A stretch of DNA of 64,000 nt. It comes from Escherichia phage JM10. How positions within the stretch are numbered: position 1 is the first letter of the stretch; each line of letters opens with the position of its first letter. Below are positions 44,095 to 56,046 of this stretch, in pieces. The notes below the pieces were generated by a model. That model was not told the origin of the DNA. It did no database searches and was given only the letters and a program-made list of their open reading frames with translations. Both the position numbers and the translations under genes were made by a program. The stretch lies in the sequence record PP400777. One strand, given 5' to 3'.

Positions 44095-44102
44095 TATAAA
44101 TA
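44095..44102 (+). promoter_or_regulatory. T4 late promoter TATAAATA for gene 9
   Basis: exact TATAAATA about 33 nt upstream of ATG. Confidence 0.65.
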
Positions 44103-44134
44103 GAATATAATATCGGACAACAAAAGGCAGAATT

Positions 44135-45007
44135 ATGGCATTTTTTAAGCAAACTCCTAAACAATTAATCGATACCGGCGAAATTGGTAATGCCTCAACA
44201 GGTGATATCTTATTCGACGGTGGTAATAAAATAAATGACGATATCAACGCTATTTACAATGCATTTGGCGATCAACGTAAAATGGCCGTAGCAGATGGAA
44301 CCGGACCTACAGGTCAAACTATTCATGCCACAGGATATTATCAAAAAGGAAAGGCGGTCGATTATCAAACTCCTATTAAACCAGGCACTATGCATGATAT
44401 TGATGCTTCTGATGGCGGTGTGATTGTTATTATTGACCGTCCTGAATTAGGTGACTCTGTAGAATTCATAAACTCTAATGGGTCTATTTCTGTTAACAAT
44501 CCTTTAAGTATCCAAGTAACCGATGGTTCAATTAAAGGTGTTCTTAATAATCTTGTTATTTCCATCCCTTATACCCATGTTGTTCTTCGTTGTGTTGAAC
44601 TTAATGGGACAACTTCAGTATGGAATTATTCTACTGATAGCATGTTTGGGCAGAAAGAATCTCCTGTCGATGGGACTTGGAGTCTTACAGGAAACACAGT
44701 TTCTATTCCTCTGTTTTATCGCACAGATTATAACACGGCTAAATTGCTTGTTACATGCCAATCCGCTGACGGTAGAAAAATAAAAACATGCGAAATAAAT
44801 ATTCTAATAGATACAATTAACTCAGAAGTTCTTTCTACCGAATTTGCAGTAATGCGAGTTGGTAATGTAGATGAAACCGACGAGATTGCTAATATTAGCT
44901 TTAGTATTATTAACAACTTTGCTACTATGACGATTACATCCGATATTATTGGATTACGTTCGGCAGTTAAAATTATCTCAACTCAGAAAATTGGGGTCGC
45001 TCAATAA
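44135..45007 (+). CDS. 9: baseplate protein gp9 (long tail fibre socket)
   Basis: 290 aa. Confidence 0.85.
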   Translation: MAFFKQTPKQLIDTGEIGNASTGDILFDGGNKINDDINAIYNAFGDQRKMAVADGTGPTGQTIHATGYYQKGKAVDYQTPIKPGTMHDIDASDGGVIVIIDRPELGDSVEFINSNGSISVNNPLSIQVTDGSIKGVLNNLVISIPYTHVVLRCVELNGTTSVWNYSTDSMFGQKESPVDGTWSLTGNTVSIPLFYRTDYNTAKLLVTCQSADGRKIKTCEINILIDTINSEVLSTEFAVMRVGNVDETDEIANISFSIINNFATMTITSDIIGLRSAVKIISTQKIGVAQ

Positions 45008-46812
45008 TGAAACAAAATATTAAAATTGGTAACGTCGTTGATGACGGACAAGGCGATTACCTTCGTCGAGGTGGTGAAAAAATAAATGAGAACTTTGACG
45101 AAATCTATTATGAATTAGGTGATGGTGAAGTTCCTTATGCCGCTGGCGCATGGAAGACTTATGATGCGGCTGATGGTCTTAATCTTAAGGCTGCTTGGGG
45201 TAAATCTTATGCAATTAATACTACTTCTGGACGAGTTTCGGTAAATCTTCCTAAAGGGACAATTGCAGACTATAATAAAGTTATTCGTGCTCGTGACGTA
45301 TTTGCAACTTGGAACATTAACCCTGTTACTTTAATTCCGGCAAACGGAGACACGATTAAAGGTTCTTCATCTCCGGTAGAAATTAACGTTCAGTTCTCTG
45401 ACTTAGAATTAGTTTATTGTGCTCCTGGACGTTGGGAATACATCAAGAACAAACAAATTGACAAAATAGTTAGCTCTGACATTAGTAACGTTGCTCGTAG
45501 AGAATATCTGGTTGAAACCCAAGGTCAGACCGATTTCATGGATGTTTTTAATGGAACATCTTATAACGTTAACAACATTCGCGTAAAACATCGTGGCAAC
45601 GAATTGTATTATGGTGATGTATTCAGTGATAATAGTGATTTTGGTTCTCCAGGCGCTAATCCTGGTGAACTGGTTGCACTCGATGGATTTAATATTAGAT
45701 TACGCCAACCATGTAATGTTGGGGACACTGTACAAATTGAGACATTTCTAGATGGCGTTTCTCAGTGGCGTAGTTCATATACTCGTCGACAAGTTCGCAT
45801 TTTAGATAGTAAATTGACTGCTAAAAAGTCTATTGATGGAAGTATTTACGTCACTGATTTGAGTACGTTCCGGTCTATTCCATTTACAGCATTTGGTATT
45901 AATCCTACAGAACCACCTAACCCGAATTCATTAGAAGTTCGCTTCAATGGTATTCTCCAAGAATTAGCTGGTACTGTTGGAACTCCTATTTTCCGTTGTG
46001 AAGGTGTGGATGCTGATTCTGAAGAGTCATGCGCTAATCTCGGTGGGACATGGACTCAATCGTATACAGATTATGCGATTGAATATACTGATAATATCCC
46101 TAGCGCAATTCTGTTTGACCGTCAATTTGAAGACCAAGACATTATTACCATCACATGGTTTAATAACGATTTAGGAACTCTTCTTGAAATGGAAGAAATT
46201 CTTGATGTCGCTGATGAGAAATATGTTTCTCAAGGGTCTAACATTGAAATTACTGGTGACGTTGCATTAACCGATTTCGATAAAATTGGATGGCCTAATG
46301 TAGAACCTGTTCCTAAGTATGAACGTGAATTCTCGACTATCTCAGCAATATTTGACACAATTTATCCTGTTGGGACTATTTACGAAAATGCTGTTAACCC
46401 TAATAATCCGGCAACTTATTTAGGTTTTGGTTCGTGGAAAATTTGGGGACAAGGCAAAGTATTAGCAGGTTGGAATGACGACGCGTCGGATCCTAATTTT
46501 GCATTAAATAATAATGACCTTGACGTCAATGGTAACCCTACTCATACCGCAGGTGGTACCGTTGGTGTAACAACCATCACATTAGAAAATGCTGATTTAC
46601 CAGCTACACAAACCGATGAAAAGGTTCTTATTTCTGATGATAATGGTACAGTAATTATAGGCGGTTGCCAATACGACCCGGATGCAGAAGGTCCTATTTA
46701 CACTAAATATCGTGAAGACCATGCAAAGACTAACGGATCTCATGTTCCAGCGCGTTCTATAACTAATATTCAGCCATCTATAACTGTATACCGTTGGGTA
46801 AGGATTGCATAA
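45007..46812 (+). CDS. 10: baseplate wedge protein gp10
   Basis: 601 aa. Confidence 0.85.
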
Positions 46813-47471
46813 TGACTGTACTTAATACAAAGGCGGGAGTTATTTCCCGTCATGCTGATTTTTTGAATTACAGAAAAAATCCAGCTCAAATTGATGTTTT
46901 AAACAACCAAGCTGTAGGTTCCGTGACTATTTCTCAGTTAGCTCGCGGTTTTTATGATGCTAACGTAGAATCTGCAATAAATGATGTCCATAATATGGCA
47001 CGAGCTGATATTGGTACTGTTGTCACAAACACTTCAGGCATATCGCCTGAAGGTACAGCACAAGTTGATTATTGGACTTTTTCTGGTGATGTTCTCGACG
47101 ATACTTTGGCCCCTGGAACGCCGGTCGTTATTAACGTATTTGGACTTGCTGTTAAAGCAACAATCGGTATGACTGATAACGAATTAACGGCACAAGTTCG
47201 TATAGCTTTACAAGAAGCCATTGCTAATCAAATCGCTATTTCTTCTTATAGAGACCATCCGTCCGAAGGTAATAAACTTCAGGTGACATATTTAGATAAC
47301 CAACGTCATGTGTTGCCAACATATGCTTCGTTTGGTGTAACAATTTCGCAAGAAATTTTGTCTGAAGCAAAATCCGGATACGGAACATGGAATTTATTGG
47401 GTGCCCAAACGGTTACTCTTGATAACCATGATACTCCTACCGTTTTCTACCACTTTGTGAGAGCCTCATGA
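46812..47471 (+). CDS. 11: baseplate wedge protein gp11
   Basis: 219 aa from MTVLNTKAG; ATG overlaps the gene 10 stop (TAATG). Confidence 0.85.
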
Positions 47472-49051
47472 GTAATAACAATACATACCAACACGTTTCA
47501 AATGAATCTATTTACGTTGAATTCGACCCCGTAGGGTCGAATTTTCCAGATACAGTCACTAATGTCCAAGCCGCATTAGCTGCCATTTCTCCTTCAGGTG
47601 TTAATGGCGTACCGGAAGCAACAACTACTACACCTGGAATTATTCAAATAGCTACTCCACAAGAAGTTATTGATGGATTAGATAATAGTAAAGCTGTTAC
47701 TCCGGCAACACTGAATGCTCGTCTACAATATCCTAATGCAACCGAAACTCAATATGGCTTAACTCGTTATGCTACTGAAGATGAAGCAGTAACCGGAACT
47801 ATTGACGATGCATCAATTACTCCGCTTAAATTGAATCAAAAAATAGACAATGTATTTCAGACAAAAGTGTCAACAGAAGCAACAAATGGTGTAATTAAAA
47901 TTTCAACTTCTGCTGCGGCATTAGCTGGTTCTGACGATACAACGGCAATGACCCCGTTAAAAACACAACAATTAGCAATTAAACTTATTTCACAAATTGC
48001 TCCAAATAATAGTGACGCCACCGAATCTATTACCGGTGTTGTTCGTTTGGCTACAGTTGCTCAAGCACAACAAGGCACCCTGCGTGAAGGCTATGCAATT
48101 TCACCTTATACCTTTATGAATTCAGTAGCATCAGAAACTAATAAAGGTGTCGTTAAACTAGGGACACAGACTGAAGTAAATAGTAACAACTCTTCAGTTG
48201 TAGTGACTGGCGCAACATTAAACGGGCGTGGGGCTACAACTTCTTTACGTGGAGTTGTTCGTTTAACTACACAAGCGGGTAGCCAATCAGGTGGTGATGG
48301 TTCTTCTGCCCTTGCTTGGAATGCTGATGTTATCCACCAACGAGGTGGACAAACTATTAATGGCACGCTTCGCATTAATAATACGTTGACGGTTGGTTCT
48401 GGTGGAGCTAATATAACTGGTAATGTCAATATGACCGGTGGTTATATTCAAGGCAATCGTATTGTGACTCAAAATGAATTAGACCGAATTCTTCCAGTTG
48501 GCGCTATTACAATGTGGGCTGCAGATAGTTTACCGAGTTCTGACTGGCGCTTCTGTCACGGTGGGACCGTTTCTGCTTCAGAATGTCCGGTATATGCTTC
48601 CAGAATTGGGACACGATATGGTGGTAGCTCTTCTAACCCAGGCTTGCCTGATATGCGTGGATTATTTGTTCGCGGCTCAGGTCGTGGTAACCATTTAACT
48701 AACCCTAATGTTAATGGTAATGACCAATTCGGTAAACCTCGTCTGGCGGTAGGTTGTACCGGTGGATATGTTGGTGAAGTGCAAAAACAACAGATGTCAT
48801 ATCATAAGCATGCTGGTGGTTTTGGTGAACATGACGATTCCGGTGCATTTGGTAATACTCGTCGTTCAAACTTTGTTGGTACTCGTAAAGGACTTGACTG
48901 GGATAACCGTTCATATTTTACTAACGAAGGATATGAAATTGATCCAGCGTCTCAGCGTAACTCTAAATATACCATGAATCGTCCAGAATTAATTGGAAAT
49001 GAAACTCGTCCATGGAATATTTCTTTAAACTATATTATTAAGGTAAAATAA
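47468..49051 (+). CDS. 12: short tail fibre gp12
   Basis: 527 aa. Confidence 0.9.
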
Positions 49052-50499
49052 TGGCTGATATAACTCTGGTAGATTTACCATATGTTGACGGCCCGCCAGA
49101 CGCGGGTCAGAGTCGTATTGAATGGATTAAAAACGATGAAGAAATAACAGGTGCTGACACAAAATACGGTTCTGAAGGTGTAATGAACCGTCCTATTGTT
49201 GAAGTTCAACGTAACGTAGAAGCGTTAGATGTTAATATTAAAACTATAGCATCTTCTTTGAATACGGCCAATGAAGATATCAAAGTTATTCAAGGTATTT
49301 TAGATGTTTCTGGGGATGTTGATGCTCTTGCACAGATAGGTCAGAACACCCAAGATATTGATGTCATTAAAGTCACAGTTCAAACCCATGCTAGTGAATT
49401 GAATGATTTGAATGAACATATTGATGCGAATACTGATGATATTGGTGTTTATAATCAGGAAACAGATTCAGTTTATAGAACGGTTCGTAATGACCTGCTT
49501 TGGATTAAAAATGAATTAGGACAATATACTGGTCAAGATATTAATGGGGTTCCTACTCCAGGAAATGATAGCACTGGTATGAAACGCCGTATTATGACTA
49601 ATAGCTCTGTAATTGTTGACCACGGTGTTCGATTAACTGATTTAGAAACTAAATTTGCTGATTCTGATGTTGGCTCTTTAACTCTTGAAGTTGAACACTT
49701 GCGCGAAGAAATGGGGCCTCGTACTTCTTTCACTACTCCAGTGTTTAGTCGTCTTTCCGGTATTGATTTAACTTTGTCGCGTCAAAATGCTGACTTGGAT
49801 GGCATTAAACAGTCTATTGGGTATCCTAATACGACTTCTATTATTACTACAACTAATGCGAATAGTTCAGCAATAAACGACATTAATCTTGAGCTCAATC
49901 AATCCGGTGGTATTAAACCTCGTTTGACTACAGTAGAAACTGCCATTGGCGCTGATGATTTGCCTACTACAATCCAAGGACGTATTAAACTCAATACTGA
50001 TGCTATCGGAGCATTGAACACTGTTGTCGGCTCTGATTCTTCGTCAGGATTGCGTTTTAATGTGTCATGGTTAAATAACGTAGTCGGTGTTGACGCTTCA
50101 GGTGGTAAACCGGAACCAGACGGCTCTTTGCTTTATCGTACTCGAGAGCTTGAAGGAACTATCGGTGGGCTGAGTAATGACATTCAGAACATTCAAACTG
50201 ATGTTGGGACTAATTCCACAGGAATTAAGGGTTCTGTAAACACATTAAATACTCTTATAAATGGCACCAACCCAAATGGTTCAACTGTTGAAGAACGCGG
50301 TATATTGCCTACAGTTAAAAGTCATGATACGACAATTAATGGTTTAACTTCTAGAATTGCTACTCTTGAAACTGATTTGGCCGCTGCAGAAGCTGAAATT
50401 CAAACTCTTAAGGACGCTGGATATATTGAAGATGCTCCTTCAGACGGTAAATTCTATGTTCGCAAAGATGGTGCATGGGTTGAACTTCCTACAGCTTAA
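49051..50499 (+). CDS. wac: fibritin (whisker antigen control)
   Basis: 482 aa; coiled-coil repeats; C-terminal foldon GYIEDAPSDGKFYVRKDGAWVELP. Confidence 0.9.
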   Translation: MADITLVDLPYVDGPPDAGQSRIEWIKNDEEITGADTKYGSEGVMNRPIVEVQRNVEALDVNIKTIASSLNTANEDIKVIQGILDVSGDVDALAQIGQNTQDIDVIKVTVQTHASELNDLNEHIDANTDDIGVYNQETDSVYRTVRNDLLWIKNELGQYTGQDINGVPTPGNDSTGMKRRIMTNSSVIVDHGVRLTDLETKFADSDVGSLTLEVEHLREEMGPRTSFTTPVFSRLSGIDLTLSRQNADLDGIKQSIGYPNTTSIITTTNANSSAINDINLELNQSGGIKPRLTTVETAIGADDLPTTIQGRIKLNTDAIGALNTVVGSDSSSGLRFNVSWLNNVVGVDASGGKPEPDGSLLYRTRELEGTIGGLSNDIQNIQTDVGTNSTGIKGSVNTLNTLINGTNPNGSTVEERGILPTVKSHDTTINGLTSRIATLETDLAAAEAEIQTLKDAGYIEDAPSDGKFYVRKDGAWVELPTA

Positions 50500-50504
50500 T
50501 GAAA

Positions 50505-50520
50505 AGGGCCTTCGGGCCCT
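50505..50520 (+). other. GC-rich stem-loop after wac (no clear T-run)
   Basis: AGGGCC-TTCG-GGCCCT. Confidence 0.4.
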
Positions 50521-50531
50521 AAAGGATTTAT

Positions 50532-51458
50532 ATGTCAGGTTATAATGCACAAAACCCTAAAGAATTAAAGGATGTAATATTACGTCGTTTAGGCGCTCCT
50601 ATTGTAAATGTTGAATTAACTACAGACCAAATTTATGATTGTATTTCACGAGCGTTAGAACTTTATGGCGAATACCATTTTGACGGGTTGAATAAAGGTT
50701 TCCATGTATTTTTTGTTGATGACGAAGAAAAATACCGTCACGGCGTATTTGATATGCGTGGTTCTAACGTATTTGCTGTAACAAGAATTATAAGAACAAA
50801 TGTTGGCTCTATTACTTCAATGGACGGTAATGCAACTTATCCATGGTTCACTGATTTCCTTTTGGGGATGGCAGGTGTTTCAGGTGGTATGGGTAGTAAT
50901 TGTGGTAAATTCTACGGCCCAAACGCTTTTGGCGCTGACCTCGGGTATTATTCTCAATTAGTATCTTATATGGGTATGCTTCAAGATATGATTGCTCCTA
51001 TTCCGGATTTTTGGTTTAACTCTGCAAACGAGCAATTAAAAGTAATGGGTAACTTTAGACAGAAAGATGTCATTATCGTTGAATCGTATGTTCGCTCTTA
51101 TATCGAGACCCATAAGATGGTAGGAAATACAGTAGGGTACGGTCAGGTAGGTCCTCGTGATTCATGGTCTATTTCTGAACGTTATGATAATCCAGACAAT
51201 AATTTGGTCGGACGTCGAGTTGGTGAAGATCCTGCAACTAAACAAGGCGCATATAACAACCGCTGGGTTAAAGATTATGCAACTGCATTAGCTAAAGAGC
51301 TTAATGGACAAATTCTTGCTAAACATCAAGGTATGATGTTACCAGGTGGCGTCACTGTTGATGGTGTTCGATTAATTGAAGAAGCTCGTTTAGAGAAAGA
51401 AGCTTTACGAGAAGAGTTATATTTACTGGACCCTCCTGCAGGTATTTTGGTAGGTTAA
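50532..51458 (+). CDS. 13: neck protein gp13
   Basis: 308 aa. Confidence 0.85.
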
Positions 51459-51459
51459 T

Positions 51460-52095
51460 ATGGCAACATACTACAGATTGTATATTACAACATTTGAAAC
51501 ATCCACCGGTATAAAGATTTATGGTGGTAAACACAAATCAGTTTACGAAGACCCTTCAAAAGACCCTTATACTGGGTCTGGTACCTTTATACGAAGAGCC
51601 AAAAGAAAATACGGTCCGTCTTGTATAAAAGAAATTATATGGTCTAAGCCATTTGAATCTAAAGCTCTAATGGATGAAGCTGAAGAGTTACTGGTAGATG
51701 AATTATCCATTTTAGAAAATTGCGCAAATCTTGTTAAAGGGGGTGCAGGCGGAAGGTCGTATATTAACCCAGAAGATAATCCATCTATAGGACAAAAACG
51801 TTCAGTCCAATCTAAAAAGAAAATGTCTGACGCCGCGAAATCAAGAAAATGGACTGAAGAAGGGTTAAGAAAACGTAAAGAATCTACAGCAAGAATGTGG
51901 AAAGATTTCAAACATAGACATCCTGATTTTTCTGGTTCAAAAAATCCAGCAGCTCGAAAAGTTAGTGTAAATGGTAAAATATTTAACACCTGCAAAGAAT
52001 GTGGTGAAGAATTTAATATCACATCAAGCGCGGTTATAGGCCGATGCAAAAACAACAAACCTAAATGGGCAGGATGGAATTATGTCGACGTATAA
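51460..52095 (+). CDS. free-standing GIY-YIG homing endonuclease (Seg-like) between genes 13 and 14
   Basis: YRLY..(x11)..KIYGG module; NUMOD3-like basic repeats; C-terminal CKECG zinc-finger-like segment; overlaps gene 14 start by 14 nt. Confidence 0.6.
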
Positions 52096-52846
52096 TTCAA
52101 ATTTATTTGCAAAGTTAGAAAATCGAGAAGGCTATTCTAAAACTAATGAAACCGAGATTTTAAACAAATACGTGAACTTCAACAAATACGAAAATAGTCA
52201 AACCCTAGCTGATGTTCTAGTGGCAGAAAGCATACAGATGCGCGGTATTGAATGTTTTTATGTTCCGCGTGAATATGTTGCCGTGGACCTTATCTTTGGT
52301 GAGGACCTTAAAAATAAATTTACTAAAGCATGGAAATTTGCTGCATATCTGAACTCTTTTGAAGGTTATGAAGGAGCGAAATCGTTCTTCAGCAACTTCG
52401 GAATGCAAGTTCAAGACGAAGTTACATTATCTATTAACCCGGGTCTTTTCAAACACCAGGTCAACAATCAGGAGCCCAAGGAAGGTGATTTAATATACTT
52501 CCCAATGGACAACAGTTTGTTTGAGATTAACTGGGTTGAACCATATGACCCATTCTATCAAGTAGGTAAAAATGCGATTCGTAAAATTACTGCAGGCAAG
52601 TTTATTTACTCTGGCGAAGAAATCAATCCGGTGCTTCAGAAAAATGAAGGTATCAATATACCTGAATTTAGTGACTTGGAACTTAACCATGTTAGAAATC
52701 TTGACGGTATCCATGACATTAATATCGATGAATATTCTGAAGTTGAGCAAATCAATTCAGAGGCAAGTGAATACGTTGAGCCGTATGTAGTAGTTAACAA
52801 CCGTGGTAGACAAAATTCACCGTTTGACGACGGGTTTATGAATTAA
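52082..52846 (+). CDS. 14: neck protein gp14
   Basis: 254 aa. Confidence 0.85.
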
Positions 52847-52895
52847 TAAATAGATAAGATAAAGCAAACACCGGTCGAAAGGCCGGTTAGGAGAA

Positions 52896-53720
52896 ATGAT
52901 GTTTGGTTATTTTTACAACTCGTCGTTCAGGCGATATATCACAATGATGGGCGATTTGTTTTCAAATATCCAAGTTAACCGTCAATTGTCTACAGGCAAT
53001 AAATTAATTAGAGTTCCTATTACGTATGCATCTAAAGAGCACTTTATGATGAAACTTAATAAATGGACCTCTATAAACTCACAAGAAGATGTGGCTAAAG
53101 TCGAAACTATTCTACCACGTATAAATCTCCAAATGGTGGATTTCGTTTATAACCCAACGTTTAAAACGAATATATTGAATAACTCTCTTTTGAGTAAATC
53201 GACTAAGGATATTGTAGACCAATACAACCCATCACCAATTAAAATGATTTTTGAACTGAGCATCTTTACTCGTTATGAAGATGATATGTTCCAAATCGTT
53301 GAGCAAATTATTCCATATTTTCAGCCGCATTTTAATACGACTATGATTGAGCAATATGGGCAGGATATTCCATTTGAAAGGGATATTAAAGTCGTATGGA
53401 TGGCAGCAGCAATGGATGAACAAATAGACGGTGATAATTTATCTCGTCGACGTTTAGAGTGGTCATTAACATTTGAAGTAAATGGATGGATGTATCCTCC
53501 GGTAGGCGCAGCTGAAGGCCTTATTAAAACGACTTATCTTGATTTTCATGCTAATGAACGAGACCTTCAAACAGCCGCCAGTGTTTTTGAATCAGTTGAT
53601 ACAGAAATTAAACCGAGAGACGTTGAAGCACAAGATTGGAATGGCGAAGTTGAACAAACTTATACTCATGATATTCCAATCCCGACTCCACCAACCCCTC
53701 CTGGTCCTAGAAAACAATAA
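52896..53720 (+). CDS. 15: tail sheath stabilizer / connector gp15
   Basis: MFGYFYNSSFRRY..; 274 aa. Confidence 0.9.
   Translation: MMFGYFYNSSFRRYITMMGDLFSNIQVNRQLSTGNKLIRVPITYASKEHFMMKLNKWTSINSQEDVAKVETILPRINLQMVDFVYNPTFKTNILNNSLLSKSTKDIVDQYNPSPIKMIFELSIFTRYEDDMFQIVEQIIPYFQPHFNTTMIEQYGQDIPFERDIKVVWMAAAMDEQIDGDNLSRRRLEWSLTFEVNGWMYPPVGAAEGLIKTTYLDFHANERDLQTAASVFESVDTEIKPRDVEAQDWNGEVEQTYTHDIPIPTPPTPPGPRKQ

Positions 53721-56046
<2,326 letters not shown>

Follow-up and report, generated by a model that had tools for sequence, protein, structure and literature searches.

In the window analysed here (64,000 nt of the Escherichia phage JM10 record PP400777), an ORF listed with an ATG start and 211 codons for amino acids lies on the + strand between two complete genes, the neck genes 13 and 14, as a separate ORF that leaves gene 14 intact (Table 1). 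The TAA stop codon of gene 13 (51456–51458) is separated from the ATG of this ORF by a single base, T at 51459, and the ORF overlaps the start of gene 14 by 14 nt, stop codon counted. A preliminary description of the same DNA had reported a 211-aa ORF between 13 and 14 with a 14 nt overlap; the coordinates agree, and the spacer to the gene 13 stop is one base. JM10 is a Mosigvirus, and the region is 98–99 % identical to that of phages moskry, mogra, F2 and others. Among the neighbours, wac was identified by a Fibritin_C profile match and gp15 by PF16724. The antisense ORFs beneath the endonuclease ORF (51567..52058 and 51352..51534) gave no family matches, and no second copy of the endonuclease was found within the 64-kb window. 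The full-length PHROG 314 match, together with 44 phage records that hold a full-length homologue, argues that the ORF is not a chance reading frame.

Table 1. Features of the JM10 gene 13/14 junction, in window coordinates
Feature	Position	Strand	Basis or remark
Gene 13 (neck / head-tail adaptor), 308 aa	50532..51458	+	phrog_211, E=2e-43
Probable Seg-type homing endonuclease ORF, 211 aa	51460..52095	+	PHROG 314, E=5.5e-37
Captured gene 14 start, ATGGCAACATAC (M-A-T-Y)	51460..51471	+	Junction alignments; insert-free phages have ATGGCAACTTAT
Predicted GIY-YIG catalytic domain, residues 1 to about 95	51460..51744	+	beta-beta-alpha-beta-alpha topology; Y8, Y21, E75, N90 invariant
Basic linker, predicted long helices at residues 116–128 and 133–149	51757..51954	+	One sub-threshold NUMOD3 match
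Predicted C-terminal helix-turn-helix DNA-binding domain, I-TevI type, residues 159–208	51934..52083	+	Contains non-conserved C178xxC181
AGGA, Shine-Dalgarno-like element for the relocated gene 14 start	52071..52074	+	Read from sequence
Gene 14 (neck / head closure)	52082..52846	+	PF11649, E=1e-127; phrog_679
Recoded gene 14 5′ tract	52082..52129	+	16 codons with 15 nt changes relative to the empty-site allele

Positions 50505–50520, after the wac stop and ahead of the gene 13 start, form a perfect GC-rich palindrome, AGGGCCTTCGGGCCCT. Several related records label it a terminator; since no T-run follows it on the + strand, its role may instead be that of a hairpin that stabilises RNA.

The PHROG 314 family, named ‘homing endonuclease’, matches the JM10 protein from end to end, and the PADLOC HEase models match it at E=2.5e-9. 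In tblastn searches, the protein is 33 % identical to T4 SegC over 92 % of the query, 32 % identical to SegD and 37 % identical to the region of the old ‘gene 69’ (SegF). The Pfam families PF01541 and PF19835 do not match the JM10 protein at E≤1; the family assignment therefore rests on relatives, profile-profile comparison and fold. An exhaustive HMMER search returned 1606 cluster representatives at E≤1e-3, and of 61 relatives screened with Pfam, 14 matched SegE_GIY-YIG (PF19835), 18 NUMOD3, 10 I-TevI_DNA-bd and 2 GIY-YIG (PF01541). The JM10 protein itself has sub-threshold Pfam matches to I-TevI_DNA-bd (E=9.9e-5) and NUMOD3 (E=0.0026), and its C-terminus matches a profile of the I-TevI DNA-binding domain at E=4e-6. 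A phmmer search with the single protein against PDB sequences gave nothing meaningful; the profile of 61 sequences recovered the I-TevI catalytic domain from all PDB sequences, weakly, at E=0.39, and pairwise hhalign against I-TevI gave a likewise weak score (P 0.0012).

The GIY-YIG-like module (YRLY...KIYGG) of the preliminary description is borne out: YRLY is found at residues 5–8 and KIYGG at 19–23, both tyrosines are invariant and the predicted fold agrees. That description had also regarded a profile search without a GIY-YIG domain as evidence against its reading. Here the outcome is divided, as Pfam misses the JM10 protein, but 16 of the 61 relatives are matched and both the fold and the residues are in agreement. 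The AlphaFold2 model has a mean pLDDT of 81, with 85–93 in the N-terminal domain, and its strands at residues 4–14 and 17–27 form a beta-hairpin that holds the two motifs. Eleven positions are invariant in the alignment of 61 relatives (Y8, Y21, G23, Y37, G39, G41, G52, E75, N90, G94 and G95). Four of these, Y8, Y21, E75 and N90, fall on I-TevI Y6, Y17, E75 and N90 in hmmsearch and hhalign comparisons, with weak scores. The features of the GIY-YIG superfamily are thus present in the form of hairpin motifs with both tyrosines, a catalytic Glu, a structural Asn and an alpha/beta fold. The position of the catalytic R27 of I-TevI has no invariant Arg as counterpart; K24-H25 is found there (K-R-H in close relatives), and hhalign places a gap at R27.

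The remainder of the protein has a modular DNA-binding region of NUMOD3 plus helix-turn-helix, as in Seg-type genes, and the domain order predicted from the model runs from a GIY-YIG fold through a linker to a helix-turn-helix, the last two both I-TevI-like. Two details of the preliminary description stood only in part. The NUMOD3-like basic repeats correspond to a stretch at residues 100–170 that is indeed rich in lysine and arginine (27 % K+R), but NUMOD3 matches only once, at residues 105–123, with 18.1 bits against a Pfam cut-off of 20.4. The C-terminal CxxC segment is present as C178-K-E-C181, but the pair is not conserved and forms no zinc motif. Among the relatives C181 alone is invariant, C178 is replaced by G or L, and C196 is variable. 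A zinc finger was rejected because C178 and C196 are not conserved and the segment forms helix 1 of the helix-turn-helix.

Comparison with I-TevI, which is encoded by the td group I intron of T4, brings out both kinship and difference. The helix-turn-helix DNA-binding domain and a C-terminal K-W-x-W-x-Y motif are shared. In contrast, the JM10 ORF is not in an intron, the protein is without the Cys4 zinc finger of I-TevI and has one conserved Cys in that region, and the helix that bears R27 and H31 is replaced in the JM10 family by a GKHxS...DxYxGSG loop. The T4 proteins SegC, SegD, SegE, SegF and SegG have a similar architecture to that predicted for JM10, in which a GIY-YIG domain of the SegE-like subtype at the N-terminus is followed by a basic linker and, at the C-terminus, by a DNA-binding domain, although at 32–37 % identity to SegC, SegD and SegF the sequence kinship is only distant.

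The junction itself retains a record of how the gene is accommodated. In insert-free phages the junction reads ...GGTAGGTTAA-T-ATGGCAACTTATGAT..., i.e. TAA-T-ATG, with gp14 starting at that ATG. In JM10 the endonuclease now begins with the ancestral ATG and first four codons of gene 14 (MATY|YRLY...), and an SD-like GGTAGG in the 3′ end of gene 13 (51449–51454), which originally served gene 14, lies just upstream. Gene 14 restarts at 52082 within the final codons of the endonuclease (..W-N-Y-V-D-V-stop; in the other frame ATG TCG ACG..). The AGGA element lies 7 nt upstream of this ATG, inside the conserved K-W-x-x-W codons of the endonuclease, and by its position would serve translation of the relocated gene 14 start. 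AAGGAG or GGAG equivalents are found in MX01, Phi1, KpCCP1 and G5211. MX01 has the same plan, with a restart, ATGTCGAC, identical to that of JM10, and KpCCP1, G5211 and Phi1 also follow the plan. Start capture is likewise evident in VR26 when compared with its endonuclease-free relative TH15. In the VR26 record (NC_028957) the endonuclease is annotated from locus 1555, which deprives it of its 18 N-terminal residues and with them of the GIY-equivalent motif; the true start is at locus 1501 (MATYYRLY), where the ATG overlaps the stop of gene 13 as TAATG.

Downstream of the restart, the 5′ end of gene 14 departs from the endonuclease-free allele. Of its first 16 codons 11 are changed, 7 silently and 4 with an amino-acid change, against a background of about 1 difference in 60 nucleotides over the remainder of the 3-kb comparison. 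A 65-nt stretch of the gene 14 5′ end has matches of ≥97 % identity only among the 12 carrier records; every other phage is at ≤80 %. When five carriers were aligned with four non-carriers over 8.6 kb, the sole fixed differences were at 51468–51476 and 52103–52129. The gene 14 tract is inherited strictly with the endonuclease gene. Departure of the carrier allele from the endonuclease-free allele beside the insertion site is what would be expected of a Seg-type gene, and the recoded tract is presumed to be an immunity tract that covers the target region. An AAGCTAG in gene 14, altered in two carrier alleles, was considered as the core of the target and rejected, as endonuclease-free Mosigvirus phages also have AAACTAG. 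At position 52145 JM10 has AAT where the carriers moskry, SQ17, RPN187 and phiEC1 have AAC (both Asn, codon 14); the JM10 SNP is private and synonymous, and phiEC1 has one more base change in that codon.

No T4-type late promoter (TATAAATA) is present on the + strand from 44102 to 56039, where one-mismatch sites only occur (48962, 50256 and 51510), and no terminator-like site was found on the + strand near the endonuclease ORF. With neither a late promoter of its own nor a nearby + strand terminator-like site, the endonuclease gene is most likely read as part of the late 13–14 message. In T4, segC, segF and segG are promoter-less cassettes according to the review of Edgell, Gibb and Belfort (PMC2988022), intergenic and overlapping their neighbours, and the JM10 gene resembles them in this, as it resembles the T4 seg genes in its patchy distribution among relatives. 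It is unlike them in that it takes the start codon of the downstream gene and supplies a replacement start, and in that it occupies 13/14, a junction used by no T4 seg gene. The preliminary description had placed no T4 seg gene here, in agreement with the published list of T4 seg sites, which has none at 13/14 (PMC2988022).

The ORF is far from universal at the junction, a point on which the preliminary description had made its reading depend. Among about 150 close Mosigvirus records 12 are carriers; some 140 are empty, and in these the alignment falls into two parts from which precisely the insert is absent, gene 13 being joined directly to gene 14. Within Gaprivervirus 9 carrier records stand against 21 insert-free records among the 30 listed, and presence/absence polymorphism at 13/14 is also found within Krischvirus. 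Gene 13 is collinear and 97–99 % identical in carriers and non-carriers alike, and the non-carrier KAW3E185 matches the JM10 flanks as closely as any carrier does. Among carriers the endonuclease gene differs by 0.7–0.8 %, gene 13 by 1.2–3.1 % and gp12/wac by up to 31 % (SQ17), a contrast between gene and flanks that is only marginally significant (Fisher p 0.04–0.12, pooled). Between genera, endonuclease identity (51–62 %) does not track gp13 identity (50–89 %). In all 44 of the phage records with a full-length homologue at E≤1e-30 the gene adjoins neck genes; the genera are Mosigvirus, Dhakavirus, Gaprivervirus, Krischvirus and Slopekvirus. A scan of IMG/VR yielded only three loci, two of them already known phages, and so gave no further information on distribution. 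The carrier pattern, the linkage and the divergence fit repeated lateral spread of a compact cassette, and part of the carrier/non-carrier pattern could reflect loss rather than gain.

Two individual records deserve mention. SQ17 has the same cassette (0.8 % different), with gp12/wac about 31 % different from JM10 47400–50499, which points to mosaic exchange of the short tail fibre/fibritin module beside conserved neck genes. The cluster of 99 %-identical proteins also contains an NCBI entry from a 90-kb contig, named ‘hypothetical protein ABH225_001158 [Shigella flexneri]’; the gene is probably not bacterial but part of phage DNA that was assembled as bacterial.

Taken together, the ORF is best explained as a free-standing, promoter-less Seg-type GIY-YIG homing endonuclease cassette, with a probability of roughly 0.8, and the preliminary identification of a free-standing GIY-YIG homing endonuclease between genes 13 and 14 is supported. 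That the cassette is currently active in homing is somewhat less probable. The mobile unit would comprise the endonuclease ORF and the first ~48 nt of gene 14. It would be transcribed late, together with genes 13 and 14, and translated from the former ribosome-binding site and start of gene 14. In a mixed infection the protein would bind the DNA of a phage without the gene and cut it at the uninterrupted 13/14 junction or in the gene 14 5′ region. Recombinational repair on the carrier genome, with gene 13 as the left and gene 14 as the right homology arm, would then copy in the endonuclease gene and the recoded tract. Carriers would be immune to cutting because their gene 14 tract is recoded and the insert splits their junction.

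A decayed or domesticated relic is an unlikely explanation of the same locus. Here the gene would have descended vertically, with patchiness produced by repeated loss, and the protein would be inactive or capable of DNA binding only. The failure of the Pfam GIY-YIG models on the JM10 protein and the lack of an invariant Arg matching I-TevI R27 are in keeping with such decay, and an ORF so tightly woven into gene 14 expression could be fixed in place. However, all 44 close homologues are full-length, and Y8, Y21, E75 and N90 are invariant over 61 diverged relatives. Additionally, the cassette is almost unchanged between phages whose flanks diverge by up to 3 % (gene 13) and 31 % (gp12/wac), and recoding of the target tract is difficult to account for unless an active nuclease selected for it. 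An origin inside an intron is very improbable. Some GenBank records do use the terms ‘intron-associated’ or ‘group I intron endonuclease’, and TIGR01453 (‘group I intron endonuclease’) matches below its cut-off at E=4.9e-6, but this match is limited to residues 95–208, the linker and DNA-binding part. The ORF moreover lies between two complete genes and shares the start region of gene 14. An intron-encoded origin was rejected on the Rfam search, in which no group I intron or any other Rfam family was found in 50400–53000 even at E≤1.

The nuclease might instead be active and site-specific with a main payoff other than its own spread, either the exclusion of markers of co-infecting phages of other genera or the promotion of recombination or amplification of neighbouring genes. 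The occurrence of at least four Seg-like lineages at 13/14 across genera, with three types in Krischvirus, suggests competition, and SegB has recently been reported to amplify anti-defence loci (PMC13096335). Against this, nothing cargo-like is found nearby, the flanks are conserved neck genes and the linked tract is only ~48 nt. Such a payoff is largely compatible with ordinary homing and does not exclude it; as the main explanation it is quite improbable.

The free-standing homing cassette of JM10 has counterparts at the same place in other genera. GenBank genes labelled ‘segC’ or ‘homing endonuclease’ in Phi1, SP18, VR26, MX01, phT4A, G5211, moskry, mogra and F2 share the junction, the orientation and the overlap with the gene 14 start, and the Mosigvirus copies among them (moskry, mogra and F2) are 99–100 % identical to the JM10 protein. 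Relatives at this junction in Gaprivervirus, Dhakavirus, Krischvirus and Slopekvirus have 55–62 % identity to it, the Phi1 copy apart. In Krischvirus four junction states occur: empty (RB49), the G5211 type, the Phi1 ‘segC’ type and a 271-aa Seg-like type. The G5211-type endonuclease is 57 % identical to the JM10 protein and the Phi1 ‘segC’ type 29 %; the 271-aa type (Makalu_001, KFS-EC, MIZ4/5) resembles it in the DNA-binding end only (28 % over 105 aa). Krischvirus phages with 95–98 % identical neck genes thus have three different Seg-like genes, or none, at 13/14, and Phi1 and G5211 have 98 % identical gp13 yet different endonucleases at this junction. On balance there is a slight preference for reading the Straboviridae 13/14 junction as a contested landing site of at least four Seg-like lineages. 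In that reading the JM10-type family, present in five genera, would be adapted to the site by a captured start and ribosome-binding site, an embedded replacement SD and ATG, and a 48-nt recoded tract. If this reading is true, the tract marks where recognition or cleavage takes place, namely within the first ~50 bp of gene 14.

The record of vB_EcoM_005 (MK295203) contains both allele types at this junction. Within 1313–1509 the 3′ end of gene 13 is repeated directly and exactly over 50 nt, at 1313 and 1460. Between the two copies lie 97 nt of a gene 14 5′ end of the endonuclease-free type (MATFDSS...), and the endonuclease gene follows just downstream. One record thus has the ‘empty’ as well as the ‘occupied’ allele, and several of its neck genes are fragmented; in the related MX01 the repeated segment is present once. 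The double allele may be a mixed-population assembly or a recombination scar.

The kind of element is textbook, and the JM10 gene is an uncharacterised seg-like endonuclease. Little is new in its identification, because GenBank already has endonuclease labels on identical copies: the same Mosigvirus protein is named ‘homing endonuclease’, ‘GIY-YIG endonuclease’ or ‘putative endonuclease’, and the Phi1 and SP18 genes at 13/14 were labelled ‘segC’ years ago. T4 segC lies between 5.1 and 5.3 (PMC2988022), and ‘segC’ at 13/14 is a best-hit annotation, not orthology. The lesson for annotation is that ‘segC’, ‘intron-associated endonuclease’ and some GenBank starts, as in VR26, are best-hit labels or errors. 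A literature search found no paper that describes or tests a 13/14 endonuclease. Only the start-codon capture, the embedded restart and the occupancy of the site by several lineages are mildly noteworthy; general understanding is unchanged, and the value of the case lies mostly in housekeeping and teaching.

For the phages themselves, the JM10 gene adds a seg-like homing endonuclease at a site that T4 does not use. It would provide a clean natural example of how a selfish gene enters an essential late operon and leaves it unbroken, through start capture, an embedded restart and silent recoding of the target. From the short linked tract the target site can also be predicted directly and at little cost, and this prediction, if confirmed, could bring a new specificity to the GIY-YIG toolbox.
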